This document shows, piece by piece, positions 4,397 through 11,102 of a stretch of DNA of 47,777 bases (the first letter of the stretch is position 1; each line of letters starts with the position of its first letter). The stretch is from an uncultured Anaerolineaceae bacterium (lineage in GTDB: Bacteria > Chloroflexota > Limnocylindria > Limnocylindrales > CSP1-4). The stretch covers positions 1 to 47,777 of the forward strand of contig CAYRMQ010000007.1 of NCBI GenBank assembly GCA_964425305.1. The letters run 5' to 3'. Position numbers and translations under genes: made by a program. A model generated the notes under the pieces. It ran no database searches, was not told the DNA's origin, and worked only from the letters and a program-made list of their open reading frames with translations.

Positions 4397-4663
4397 GCCG
4401 TGCACCCTCCGTCGACCGGCGGCGGCCGCGTGCCCAACGATGCGATCGACTCGGACCAGGCCGGTCCGCGGCACCCGGCGGACTGCGCTTATCGCTGCTT
4501 CCTTCCGGACCTGACGAGGTTCACGCGCCACCGCTGCGCGGGACCCGATCCTCAACGTCGATCGCTCCGTCGGCATCCGCGGACGCGGGCCTCGGGAGGG
4601 GATTCAGCCCTGCTGGAGCGGATTGCAGGTACAGGGCACCGCTAGTTCCCCGCCTAGCACGGC
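4397..4663 (-). ncRNA. ffs: Signal recognition particle RNA, large bacterial type (Alu + S domains)
   Basis: Minus strand begins GCCGTGCTAGGCGGGGAACTAGCGGTGCCCTGTACCTGCAATCCGC, contains helix-8 TCAGGTCCGGAAGGAAGCAGC and ends GGGTGCACGGC, pairing with the 5' end. It lies upstream of dnaX, with -10 TAGAAT at 4675-4670. Confidence 0.96.
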
Positions 4664-4698: not shown

Positions 4699-5388
4699 TC
4701 AGGCGCTCCAGACAAGCCGGTCGTGAGCGAAATAGACGCGCCGCGGGCGCAGGCTTCTGAGCCGCGTGATCGAGCGCTCGTACGCCGCCCGGTCCGGCGC
4801 CCGCGACCTGCCCTCGCGAGCGCCCGGCTCGCCGGTCCACTCGCCGCGGCTGTACGCCGCCTGGCCGGCGAGAACGACGAGCCCCTCGCGGCCGCCGACG
4901 ACCAGCGACTGGTGACCGACCGTGTGGCCGGGCGTGGCGACGACGCGGATGCCCCGGAAGAGCTGGTAGTCGCCGGCGCGCAGCCTGTAATCGGCGCCGG
5001 CGAAGTCGACCCACTCGAGGATCGTGTGGCTGCCCGCCTGGGCGGCGTGCCACTCGGCCGGCTGGACGTGGATGGGCACGCCCGCCAGCAGGCTGTTCTG
5101 GCCGGCGTGGTCGATGTGCAGATGGCAGTTCACGACGGCGCCTATGTCGGCCAGCCCGAGACCGGCTTCGGCAAGCGCGTCGGGCAGGTGCCGGGCGCGC
5201 GGCCGGTAGCGATCGTCGACGAGCCGGCTGCCGAAGCCGAAGCCGGTATCGAACAGCAGCACGCCGCCGGCGTGGCGGACGACGTAGGCCATGACCACGC
5301 CGATCTGGCCGGCGTCCGGTTCGTCGTCGGCAAAGGTGAACTCGGCCATCTCGAGCGGTGTGATCTCGGGCAGCGTGGCGTGGGTCAT
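4699..5388 (-). CDS. Metallo-beta-lactamase-fold hydrolase (AHL-lactonase-like)
   Basis: LFDTG, HLHIDH (HxHxDH), TPGHTVGH and C-terminal AHD motifs. Confidence 0.88.
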   Translation of the reverse strand: MTHATLPEITPLEMAEFTFADDEPDAGQIGVVMAYVVRHAGGVLLFDTGFGFGSRLVDDRYRPRARHLPDALAEAGLGLADIGAVVNCHLHIDHAGQNSLLAGVPIHVQPAEWHAAQAGSHTILEWVDFAGADYRLRAGDYQLFRGIRVVATPGHTVGHQSLVVGGREGLVVLAGQAAYSRGEWTGEPGAREGRSRAPDRAAYERSITRLRSLRPRRVYFAHDRLVWSA

Positions 5389-5424
5389 GCGCTCGGGTTG
5401 ACACGTGCGGGAGGACGGCGAGGC

Positions 5425-5512
5425 TGGCGGAGAGGGTGGGATTCGAACCCACGACGGGTTGCCCCGTACGGCATTTCCAGTGCCGCGCCCTAGGCCTCTA
5501 GGCGACCTCTCC
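5425..5512 (-). tRNA. tRNA-Ser(GGA)
   Basis: GGAGAGG acceptor stem, anticodon loop CTGGAAA, long variable arm, GGTTCGAATCC, discriminator G + CCA. Confidence 0.97.
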
Positions 5513-5535
5513 GAGGGCGCAATCTTGGAGTGAAG

Positions 5536-5621
<86 letters not shown>

Positions 5622-5695
5622 GTAATCGAGGATACCAAAGGGTCGCCGGGAGCCGGACCGGACAATGGGCGCCGGGGCGGCCGAAAGCCGCCCGT

Positions 5696-6145
5696 CTAGC
5701 GGCGGGCGGAACGAGCGGCGGCCGAGAGCACCTCGGCGGCCTCGGCCTGCATGATCCCCGACACGACGTGGAGGCGGTGCGGCAGATCGTCGGCCTGGGC
5801 CAGCTGGACGGCCGAACCGGCGGCACCCGCGCGCGGATCGGCCAGCGCATAGACGAGCCCGTCGGCGTCCGACTCGAGCAGCGCCCCGACGCACATCGCG
5901 CACGGTTCACGGGCGGTGAAGACGGTCAGCCCGCCGAGCGACGTGCGACCGAGCCGGCGCGACGCCTCGCGCAGCACGACCATCACGGCGTGGGCGGTTG
6001 GATCGCCTGTCGCTTCGACCTGGTCGCGACCGCGGGCGACCATCGCATCGTCCAGCACGGCCACCGCGCCCTGCGGTCGCTCGCCGTTAGCCGCCGCTGC
6101 CCGCGCCTCGGCAAGAGCCGCGCCCATGTACAGCTCGTAGTTCAC
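5696..6145 (-). CDS. tadA: TadA-like deaminase with catalytic Glu replaced by Val (predicted inactive)
   Basis: DPTAHAVM (canonical DPTAHAEI), EPCAMC, DPRAGAAGS; tadA-tRNA-Ser-ffs-dnaX synteny; GTG start at 6145, 7 nt after TGC-TAGGAT. Confidence 0.88.
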   Translation of the reverse strand: MNYELYMGAALAEARAAAANGERPQGAVAVLDDAMVARGRDQVEATGDPTAHAVMVVLREASRRLGRTSLGGLTVFTAREPCAMCVGALLESDADGLVYALADPRAGAAGSAVQLAQADDLPHRLHVVSGIMQAEAAEVLSAAARSARR

Positions 6146-6196
6146 GGCGCCGATCCTAGCATCCGGCTGCCGCCGGGACGTGCTGGTCAAGTCAGC

Positions 6197-7546
6197 CTAC
6201 GGGATTGCCGCGACTGCGTCGCGGACGATGTCCTCAAGGGGTGCACGTCGGCGGACTTCTTCAGCGCACTCGTCGCTGAAGCAGTCTCCGAAGTCGAAGT
6301 AGAGCATCCAGTAGAGCACTTCGTCCTCGGCAAACAGCGCAAAGCTGTCGCTGATCAGGTACCGACGCCCTGCGACCTCCTCGCTCCGAAACGCCTGCCC
6401 GCCGCCACGGCCCAGGACGCCGGCATACATCTCGCCGAGCATCGCCATCATCAGGTCATCGCCGATCAACCCGTCGACTCGATGCGCCCAGATGGAGAAG
6501 GTGCTTCGCGGCGGAGAGGCGACAGCGACCGAGGCGTGCCGTGCCGGCAGATCGAAGTGATGCAGAAACACGCCGTGGAGCCCTGACTCGATACTCTGCA
6601 GGTCGTGGTCGGTCAGCGGACCAGCGGAGTGTATCTCCAGACCAATGCCGCTAACCGTTGTCGGAAGCGTTCTCTCCAGAGCGAGATCACGGCCCGGCGT
6701 GGTCTCCGGTCGGCTGGGCGCGGTGGGTGAGGGCGTGGCATGGGGTGGGGCCGTCGGCTCGGATGAAACGGGGAGGACCGCTTCCGCAGTCAACTGCAAG
6801 GCATCTAGCGGGTTGGGCAGCTGGCGGGCTTCCACGCCATCACGGTAGGCCGACCAGTCGAAAGTGATCACGAAGACTGCCGCTTCCACCCAGCCGATGC
6901 TCCACGGTTCGCCCAGCAGCAGGTCGCGCCGGTCAAGCTCCCACCTGGTACTGAGCGAGGTCCTCGTCCCCGGCCGCAACATCATCTCGGCCAGGTAGGC
7001 GCCGACCACCTCCACCGACCGGCCCACCGGGTAGCCGATGGCCACGATCTGCCAGTCTGGAGGCAGCTCTGCTTCGAAACCCGGCGCCGGCCGGGCGACC
7101 GCGACCTGCAGCTCGGGCGCGGCTATGCCGAGGCGCTGCGCGATCTTTTCGCCGACCGCACGGTCGTAGGCGGGCGGCAGGCGTGCGTCCGAACCAACGG
7201 CCTCCACCAGCATCGGCGTCGAGCCCAGCGCCGCCGGCAGCAGCTTTTCGATCTCGTCGGCGCTCGGCACCAGCGAGGCAGTCGGCGAGGCGCCCGGCGA
7301 AGGCGAGGGGGATAGTGCCGGCGGCGTGCCGGCTGGCGCTGTTGGCGACGGATCTGCGGGCGACGACTCGGCAGCCGAGGCCGGCGGCCCGACAGGAGCC
7401 GGATCGTTGGGAAGCTCGGCGGGCACGGCACGACAGGAGAGTGATACGACCACGGGCAGCGCGACGGCGAGGAGCCCCAGGCGGTGGCGCCCGGGATGAG
7501 CGGCGGCGGGACGAGCCGATGCTACCGGAGGCGTGCCTCTCCGCAT
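6197..7546 (-). CDS. Hypothetical exported/lipoprotein with Pro-rich linkers and two related domains
   Basis: Basic N-terminus, hydrophobic stretch ending VSLSC, two Pro/Ser/Thr linkers; TAAACT 7 nt upstream of the ATG. Confidence 0.75.
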   Translation of the reverse strand: MRRGTPPVASARPAAAHPGRHRLGLLAVALPVVVSLSCRAVPAELPNDPAPVGPPASAAESSPADPSPTAPAGTPPALSPSPSPGASPTASLVPSADEIEKLLPAALGSTPMLVEAVGSDARLPPAYDRAVGEKIAQRLGIAAPELQVAVARPAPGFEAELPPDWQIVAIGYPVGRSVEVVGAYLAEMMLRPGTRTSLSTRWELDRRDLLLGEPWSIGWVEAAVFVITFDWSAYRDGVEARQLPNPLDALQLTAEAVLPVSSEPTAPPHATPSPTAPSRPETTPGRDLALERTLPTTVSGIGLEIHSAGPLTDHDLQSIESGLHGVFLHHFDLPARHASVAVASPPRSTFSIWAHRVDGLIGDDLMMAMLGEMYAGVLGRGGGQAFRSEEVAGRRYLISDSFALFAEDEVLYWMLYFDFGDCFSDECAEEVRRRAPLEDIVRDAVAAIP

Positions 7547-7597
7547 GCGGCGAAGTTTATGGCGCGCGGGAAAGTCGGGCGATCGCAGGAAGGGTAG

Positions 7598-7673
7598 TGG
7601 CGCGCCCGGCGAGACTCGAACTCACGGCCTTCAGGTCCGCAACCTGACGCTCTATCCACTGAGCTACGGGCGC
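7598..7673 (-). tRNA. tRNA-Arg(GCG)
   Basis: 76-nt cloverleaf GCGCCCGTAGCTCAGTGGATAGAGCG-TCAGG-TTGCGGA-CCTGA-AGGCCGTGAGTTCGAGTCTCGCCGGGCGCGCCA; A20 and C35-G36 Arg identity elements; anticodon at 7640-7638. Confidence 0.95.
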
Positions 7674-7677
7674 GCGC

Positions 7678-7769
<92 letters not shown>

Positions 7770-7925
7770 CGCCGACGCCCGATGATAGCACGGGGACCCC
7801 TCCCGGCCGGCCCACGAGGTGGCTTCATTGCGGCCGAATCGATGCGAACGTATGATCATCCTTGATCCAATCGCCCGCGAGAGCCGGACGGACATCTGTC
7901 CGGCTTCTCTGTTTAGAGGTATGGC

Positions 7926-11016: not shown

Positions 11017-11102
11017 TGGCGGAGAGGGAGGGATTCGAACCCCCGGGGCTTTCGCCCAACGGTTTTCAAGACCGCCGCCATAAACCACTCGGCCACCTCT
11101 CC
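11017..11102 (-). tRNA. tRNA-Ser(TGA)
   Basis: Cloverleaf with loop CTTGAAA, long variable arm and GCCA end; directly downstream of serS. Confidence 0.97.

Follow-up and report, generated by a model that had tools for sequence, protein, structure and literature searches.

Retention of a glutamate-less descendant of TadA in Limnocylindria that decode CGN codons with tRNA-Arg(GCG)

The tRNA(adenine34) deaminase TadA, from which adenine base editors derive, is regarded as essential and near-universal among bacteria. In some Mollicutes, decoding by tRNA-Arg(GCG) and tRNA-Arg(UCG) takes place without TadA, and a weakening of tadA before its loss was proposed (Yokobori et al. 2013, PMC3711424). Losses of TadA in other groups were described by Diwan and Agashe (2018, PMC6063277), in the consulted sections of which Chloroflexi are not mentioned. 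For ADAT3, inactivation of the deaminase was described, and the Glu-to-Val substitution there goes with inactivity (Dolce et al. 2021, PMC8216470). Here, a stretch of 47,777 nucleotides from an uncultured bacterium of Limnocylindria (phylum Chloroflexota; the whole stretch is hereafter called the window) was analysed, in which a tadA-derived gene for a protein of 149 amino acids (aa) carries Val in place of the proton-shuttling Glu and is accompanied by a gene for tRNA-Arg(GCG). The protein is best explained, at a probability of about 0.7, as a non-catalytic pseudo-deaminase under selection, descended from TadA within an inosine-free soil lineage of Limnocylindria and engaged in a new job.

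The window protein shares with bacterial TadA the common fold, the zinc ligands, the DPTAHA and EPCxMC motifs, the size, a predicted homodimer, and the place beside tRNA-Ser genes, but it is devoid of the catalytic Glu, the adenine-binding Asn, the stacking Ile/Val, and the Lys and Asn that contact C32-A38; in addition, its genome has no tRNA-Arg(ACG), and the tRNA-Arg(GCG) of the window carries U32 instead of C32. With ADAT3/Tad3, as characterized in the consulted parts of PMC8216470, it has in common the Glu-to-Val change at the proton-shuttle site, the retained zinc ligands, and lost determinants for recognizing tRNA. ADAT3, according to the same parts, forms a heterodimer with the catalytic ADAT2, carries an N-terminal tRNA-binding domain, and has its zinc capped by a C-terminal Asp, whereas the window protein is a single domain without catalytic partner, with a full-length C-terminal helix in its model and an independent bacterial origin. 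The resemblance to ADAT3 is convergent and partial, and extends no further than the exchange of Glu for Val and the disappearance of substrate determinants. The tRNA solution, tRNA-Arg(GCG) plus tRNA-Arg(UCG), is that of the Mollicutes as far as covered in PMC3711424; tadA was lost there, whereas the Glu-less copy is kept here under selection in two families of free-living bacteria with 2-3.8-Mb genomes of 70% GC, which also retain tRNA-Arg(CCG). New in the present case is a pseudo-deaminase in bacteria that is partnerless and whose retention predates the divergence of two families belonging to different orders. Full-text searches returned no paper describing a bacterial TadA that lacks the Glu, nor any on how Limnocylindria decode with their tRNAs; the supplementary tables of PMC3711424 and PMC6063277 may list TadA and tRNA states of further taxa.

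Translation of the open reading frame (ORF) at 5696-6190 on the minus strand gave the motif DPTAHAVMVV followed by EPCAMCVGA, in agreement with the reading of HAV instead of HAE in the initial annotation; the Val codon GTG is a single base away from GAG. The ORF matched the Pfam families MafB19-deam and dCMP_cyt_deam_1, and its best NCBIfam match was TadA (NF008113) with 100 bits, under the cut-off of 150 bits, which is a weak test, being passed by only six of the 12 matching control genomes. The tRNA-Ser(CGA)/(GGA) pair downstream of the gene is also found at the HAE loci L153, L140, L137, and L001, so that the position of tadA is shared. With TadA as the best family match, TadA proteins as the nearest structures, and the shared tRNA-Ser neighbours, the window gene is the positional descendant (orthologue) of tadA.

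The start of the gene is conserved in orthologues as M/V-N-Y-E-L, and the window gene therefore starts with GTG at 6145 and encodes 149 aa; the frame is open over its full length as described in the initial annotation, though the length of 164 aa had to be corrected. Of 133 distinct upstream regions taken from orthologues, 109 contain a TAnnnT hexamer at a distance of 6-9 nt from the start (6-8 nt in 105), while shuffled sequences would yield 6.0; in 48 of the regions the hexamer is preceded by TGn. In the window, the extended -10 element ends 7 nt before the GTG, so that the transcript would be leaderless. When 5300-7900 was scanned for generic sigma-70 promoters, neither a -35/-10 pair nor a terminator was detected, so the case for the promoter is that of the conserved -10 element by itself; the gene's own extended -10 promoter, claimed at first, would hold as such a leaderless one.

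For comparison, the relatives were grouped into f1 (the family of the window), f2 (its sister family of the same order, with genomes of about 1.1 Mb), f4 (a family of another order), and f3 and f5 (other Limnocylindria). Two unpublished genomes contribute to the counts, G004 as one of the 20 genus-mates and G143 with a single HAE locus of f3; no conclusion hangs on either. At the catalytic position, Val, Ile, or Leu was found in all 138 orthologues read from f1 and f4, whereas Glu was found in all 19 HAE loci and in 109 of the 150 library representatives. An orthologue was detected in 20 of the 24 genus-mates with 66-74% identity, always in the non-Glu state. Within f1, 35 of the 40 genomes gave a match and DPTAHAV was read in 29/29 fetched loci of 13 genera; within f4, all 20 genomes gave a match and all 13 fetched loci were non-Glu. 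The nearest 80 loci among GTDB species carried HAV (72), HAI (seven), or HAL (one), and the 120 closest 90%-identity clusters of a large protein collection carried Val (106), Pro (12), or Ile (one), with one unread. In contrast, all the 17 tadA genes fetched from f3 and f5 were HAE.

In a careful IQ-TREE analysis of 71 rows, all 30 non-Glu rows of Limnocylindria were placed on one side of a branch with support of 100/98-99, and the split between f1 and f4 within this clade had support of 99/93; a quick tree of 101 rows agreed, with a non-Glu stem of 0.51 in length. The trees point to a single origin of the non-Glu state before the divergence of f1 and f4, followed by vertical descent. Loss of the gene within f1 was considered for the five genomes with no or weak match and was ruled out, all five being assembly gaps: the flanking tRNA-Ser pair is absent as well in G058, G088, and G068, the tadA locus is cut by a contig end in G072, and a run of N interrupts an otherwise matching gene in G041.

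A second, small group of HAV proteins (P0117, P0271, P0273, P0278, P0282, and P0299), 70-80% identical among themselves and encoded on short contigs, is surrounded by HAE TadAs that bear the names of Rhodothermus and Longibacter, at 62-75% identity. In the trees, P0117 came out beside the clade of Limnocylindria, a placement that is only tentative; since its own nearest relatives are these HAE TadAs, we read it as a separate origin. An independent loss of the catalytic Glu is possible for this group, and such a Rhodothermales-like lineage would hint that the route of disarming is repeatable.

The window is the whole of contig C7 in assembly G000 (3.12 Mb, 237 contigs, 70% GC, 92.9% complete, 3% contamination). 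ARAGORN analysis of the whole assembly identified the Arg tRNAs GCG, UCG, CCG, and CCU, and no A34 tRNA, hence no Arg-ACG, was present among the 45 calls in this 93%-complete genome; a lack of Arg-ACG together with a separate Arg-TCG is what had been anticipated in the initial annotation. A second call of tRNA-Arg(GCG) and one of tRNA-Thr(CGU), 79 nt each on contig C10, were discarded as false, with no Rfam tRNA match at E 0.01. Among the Arg codons of 1589 long ORFs, CGC accounts for 55.6%, CGG for 25.0%, CGU for 7.5%, CGA for 6.3%, AGG for 4.7%, and AGA for 1.0%. CGU and CGC are read by tRNA-Arg(GCG), CGA by tRNA-Arg(UCG), and CGG by tRNA-Arg(CCG), and since the CGN box is covered by these three tRNAs, inosine is unneeded.

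The tRNA-Arg orthologues of relatives were located by BLAST and read with ARAGORN. Arg-GCG went together with the non-Glu protein in all genomes fetched from f1 (17/17) and f4 (10/10), and with the lack of TadA in f2 (3/3), for which a TadA-family match was found in 0/40 genomes and no trace of the gene remains in the syntenic locus. In f3, Arg-ACG accompanies HAE TadA in G121, G139, and G109, while G107 and G137 have Arg-GCG plus Arg-UCG and no TadA, their only genes of the cytidine-deaminase (CDA) fold being RibD and Cdd. As to other classes, G236, G243, and G173 have Arg-ACG and are TadA-positive, G165, G182, and G222 have Arg-GCG and no TadA orthologue, and in G164 and G152, without TadA, only Arg-UCG and Arg-CCG were found. 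Among the genomes read, no genuine pairing of HAE with GCG or of HAV with ACG was seen. All the tRNA-Arg(GCG) read, from f1, f2, f4, the two f3 genomes, and three genomes of other classes, have U32, whereas all the tRNA-Arg(ACG) have C32 in the tRNA alignment, indicating a second anticodon-loop change that goes with the A34-to-G34 change. The proposal that substrate and enzyme changed together thus holds across the relatives: HAV with GCG, HAE with ACG, and GCG where TadA is missing.

Arg-GCG itself is not special to the window organism. In a sample of 151 Chloroflexota genomes, a TadA-family match (E 1e-15) was obtained in 41 and none in 110, the latter including the single-contig genomes G164 and G165 (97-99% complete) and the two-contig genome G152 (100%), and TadA-less genomes that use GCG are common; TadA-free decoding of CGN is common in the phylum. 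The unusual point is that two families keep the protein, while inosine-free decoding itself is widespread.

The residues that were kept, lost, and gained were compared between the 138 non-Glu sequences, the 19 HAE loci (the 17 TadAs of f3 and f5 plus L001 and L137, which are stray copies on short contigs), and the 109 HAE library representatives. Residue numbers are those of the window ORF, from which the number in Staphylococcus aureus TadA is obtained by subtracting 14; this offset fits H53, A54, E55, C83, C86, N42, and I26 as given in the consulted parts of PMC8216470 and D104, K106, and N123 as given in those of PMC3711424. The residues D63, P64, T65, H67, C97, and C100 are kept in 100% of the non-Glu sequences and A66 and A68 in 98-99%; E95-P-C97-x-M-C100 is likewise kept in 100%, and G102-A103 is also conserved. 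At position 69 (S. aureus E55), Val, Ile, or Leu replaces the Glu of canonical TadA. Two positions of the adenine pocket have changed: position 56 (S. aureus N42, which binds adenine N3 according to the portion consulted of PMC8216470) is Asp in 68%, Glu in 15%, Ser in 5%, and others in the rest (Asp56 in the window) versus Asn in 99-100% of canonical sequences, and position 40 (S. aureus I26, which stacks on adenine according to the same portion) is variable (Gln40 in the window) versus Val/Ile in 97-99%. The two residues described in the sections consulted of PMC3711424 as contacting C32-A38 of the anticodon loop have changed as well: position 120 (S. aureus K106) is variable (Arg 29%, Val 21%, Glu 8%) versus Lys/Arg in 94-96%, and position 137 (S. 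aureus N123) is Pro in 55% versus Asn in 84-89%. At position 108, Asp is found in 76% of the clade versus Arg in 97-100%. Near-invariant residues gained by the clade are N17-Y18-E19-L20, A44, A49, F91, V101, and S144-G145.

The AlphaFold2 (AF2) model of the window protein has a predicted local distance difference test score (pLDDT) of 97.5 with the C-terminal helix (133-148) in full length, and superimposes on the TadA structures 7cph, 2b3j, 1wwr, and 1z3a with template-modelling (TM) scores of 0.94-0.97 (0.96 for 2b3j and 7cph) and a root-mean-square deviation of about 1 A. A homodimer is predicted: the dimer model gave an ipSAE of 0.86 against 0.00 for the best control, with an agreement between runs of at least 98% of contacts and a partner pLDDT of at least 93. 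This mark was reached by 20 of the 30 proteins solved as pairs and one of the 23 solved as single chains, and for the window protein it may reflect the likeness to solved TadA dimers. Judged from these residues, the protein would bind zinc and be inactive as an adenosine deaminase.

The median pairwise Nei-Gojobori (NG86) dN/dS was 0.38 for the non-Glu clade (8776 pairs); HAE TadA gave 0.35 within f3 and f5 (119 pairs) and 0.32 in the remaining Chloroflexota (39 pairs). At dS near saturation (medians 0.8-1.07) and 70% GC these values are rough, only the comparison between clades being meaningful. The frame was open in all 157 loci read, with one copy interrupted by N. The tadA-derived gene evolves like an active gene and not like a relic, under purifying selection like that on active TadA. 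The initial annotation, which took the protein as kept and named a ratio near 1 as the sign of decay, is supported on this point also by the conserved promoter and the clade-specific residues.

These observations altogether fit the following course of events. In the common ancestor of f1 and f4, the proton-shuttling Glu was lost (now Val, rarely Ile, Leu, or Pro) together with the residues of the adenine pocket and of the anticodon-loop contact, while the zinc site with its His/Cys/Cys ligands, the TadA fold in its entirety, and a predicted homodimer were retained through the change. Since then, purifying selection has been as strong as on active TadA, behind the gene's own conserved, putatively leaderless promoter. 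Long purifying selection on a protein without the Glu leads to the view of a pseudo-deaminase that serves these bacteria in a new capacity other than catalysis, and we infer that it now probably binds RNA in the setting of the tRNA and SRP-RNA genes around it (SRP, signal recognition particle). As a more tentative extension, a zinc-bound homodimeric pseudo-enzyme may act on translation RNA, for instance as a binder or chaperone of tRNA-Arg(GCG), of the tRNA-Ser species encoded nearby, or of SRP RNA, and could be the first bacterial counterpart of ADAT3 type, of independent origin and without partner. Limnocylindria show three outcomes side by side, the enzyme with ACG, its deletion with GCG, and the disarmed fold with GCG, and this opens the order of events, as well as a second function concealed in the TadA fold, to tests by comparison and by simple biochemistry.

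Several points weigh against the pseudo-deaminase view. The case for inactivity, zinc, and binding is made from sequence and models, and dS is near saturation as noted. The f3 genome G125 (89% complete) has Arg-ACG, yet no TadA was found in it. Divergent DPTAHAE matches of 67-88 bits exist in G182 and G222, and the DPTAHAE proteins L231 (G222) and L232 (G153) are on a very long branch; all are unclassified, and G222, which uses Arg-GCG, is a counter-example if proteins of the L231/L232 type are true TadAs. Of the 16 f3/f5 genomes sampled for tRNA-Arg, ten yielded only pieces with other tRNAs (Arg isoacceptors, and tRNA-Gly in one) and none with the ACG/GCG tRNA. The outright deletion of tadA in the streamlined f2 and in the two f3 genomes G107 and G137 means that the protein is dispensable in some backgrounds. 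Finally, position 56 is acidic in 83% of the clade, and its side chain might in theory offer a carboxylate close to the pocket, for residual or altered chemistry.

From this last point arises an alternative which we regard as improbable, though it is the strongest of the rivals, namely that the protein is still an enzyme with an intact zinc site and a pocket remodelled to suit a different substrate or mechanism, in which Asp/Glu at 56 might serve as the proton shuttle; the new invariant residues would then form a new active site and not a binding surface. The conservation of His/Cys/Cys, DPTAHA, and EPCxMC at 98-100%, the acidic position 56, the several new invariants, and a selection on par with that on active TadA are all in line with such an enzyme. 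However, none of the residues at the catalytic position (Val, Ile, Leu, or Pro) can serve as a proton shuttle, position 56 varies within the clade, and to our knowledge no enzyme of the CDA fold works without the catalytic Glu. The inactivity that goes with the same Glu-to-Val change in ADAT3, as given in the sections consulted of PMC8216470, also argues against it.

A non-catalytic subunit that is paired with a catalytic deaminase as in ADAT3, proposed in the initial annotation as a partner of another deaminase and a bacterial 'Tad3', was found to be very unlikely. Apart from the shared Glu-to-Val change and the zinc ligands, it could draw on the second, HAE-containing tadA for which a search had been recommended and which does exist in the assembly, on the 1530-bp contig C234 (L001:1-1530). 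This contig, however, repeats the single-copy window genes tRNA-Ser(CGA) and tRNA-Ser(GGA) and carries SRP RNA of small type, whereas that of the window is of large type; in the careful tree, its TadA is joined to P0088 of the library (100/95) and lies apart from both clades of Limnocylindria; and no such copy is present in the 24 genus-mates, a single-contig genome included. C234 is probably a contaminant and its HAE tadA foreign; an HAE copy of 184 bits on a short contig of G138 is read as a contaminant as well. No further PF00383 protein was detected in G000, and extra CDA-fold genes in some relatives are sporadic, RibD and Cdd being identified only in f3 and f2 genomes; ten fetched second-tier matches of this fold have motifs that look guanine- or cytosine-deaminase-like. 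There is no catalytic partner for the window protein, and in addition, no A34 tRNA is present to be edited, a homodimer is predicted, and an ADAT3-like N-terminal domain is missing.

Slightly less probable still is a decaying, functionless relic that awaits deletion. The substrate has gone, and f2 and two f3 genomes have indeed deleted tadA, but the open frames and the dN/dS described above, together with the conserved zinc motifs, new residues, and promoter, are against decay, and so are the retention in two families of different orders, with a gene phylogeny equal to the taxonomy, and the tracing of the five apparent absences to assembly gaps. An artefact of sequencing, assembly, or binning, conceivable for a metagenome-assembled genome of 237 contigs with 3% contamination and a Val one base from Glu, is practically dismissed by the same state in more than 130 other genomes, by identical contigs of two other sequencing runs, and by the 16S rRNA and the clade's type of SRP RNA carried on the window.

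The features of the window that bear on the gene are listed in Table 1.

Table 1. Positions of the tadA-derived gene, its elements, and its neighbours in the window.
Feature	Position	Strand	Basis
tadA-derived gene, 149 aa	5696-6145	-	ORF and motif, family matches, conserved start, AF2 model
Val codon GTG at the proton-shuttling Glu site (S. aureus TadA E55)	5986-5984	-	sequence; alignment to 2b3j and 7cph
Zinc-ligand His codon of the tadA-derived gene	5992-5990	-	sequence
Zinc-ligand Cys codons of the tadA-derived gene	5902-5900, 5893-5891	-	sequence
Extended -10 element TGcTAGGAT	6161-6153	-	sequence; ends 7 nt before the GTG start
tRNA-Arg(GCG), anticodon 7640-7638, loop UU-GCG-GA (U32)	7598-7673	-	ARAGORN; Rfam tRNA, 69.9 bits
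tRNA-Ser(GCU)	7678-7769	-	ARAGORN, Rfam; in relatives, constant neighbour of tRNA-Arg(GCG)
tRNA-Ser(CGA), next gene downstream from the tadA-derived one	5536-5621	-	ARAGORN, Rfam
tRNA-Ser(GGA), second of the conserved downstream pair	5425-5512	-	ARAGORN, Rfam
tRNA-Ser(UGA)	11017-11102	-	ARAGORN, Rfam
Large-type bacterial SRP RNA	4398-4662	-	Rfam RF01854, 170 bits
449-aa ORF between tRNA-Arg and the tadA-derived gene	6197-7546	-	ORF; no Pfam or NCBIfam match
ORF of metallo-beta-lactamase fold between tRNA-Ser(GGA) and SRP RNA	4699-5388	-	Pfam
Partial 16S rRNA at the contig end	1-886	-	Rfam

The arrangement of tadA, tRNA-Ser, and SRP RNA is a conserved neighbourhood, with SRP RNA of large type in eight of the nine f1 and f4 loci scanned (all except L030); a gene order of tadA, SRP RNA, and dnaX is known for Bacillus. 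The tRNA-Arg(GCG) of the initial annotation was confirmed, with its distance from the tadA-derived gene corrected from 1.5 kb to 1.4-1.45 kb. The 449-aa ORF between the two has a signal-peptide-like start and a linker rich in Pro, Ala, and Ser, and is not fixed at the locus, as tRNA-Arg adjoins the tadA-derived gene in several genus-mates.

Among Logan contigs, those of two DNA runs are letter-identical to the window, X1 over 5593-7657 and X3 over 5593-6452, both of which may stem from the source study of the window itself. Contigs of the RNA runs X18 and X19 cover the tRNA genes only, with next to no cover of the tadA-derived gene; they represent small shares of the runs and are uninformative on its expression either way. 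In databases, these proteins are named 'tRNA(adenine34) deaminase' (JGI) or 'nucleoside deaminase' (NCBI). The former name is probably wrong for them, and the many entries that bear it flag a systematic error of annotation.

A separate observation was made on the decoding of AUA. A tRNA-Ile(UAU) is encoded in G000 (contig C86:5142-5217, minus strand; ARAGORN; Rfam tRNA, 63.7 bits), where the highest TilS-family score, 19.9 bits, stayed under the cut-off of 27, and PF01171 was counted in f1 0/17, f2 0/3, f3 19/19, f4 20/20, and f5 1/1. The order Limnocylindrales seems to read AUA without lysidine, which, if true, would be the giving up of a second 'essential' anticodon-modifying enzyme.

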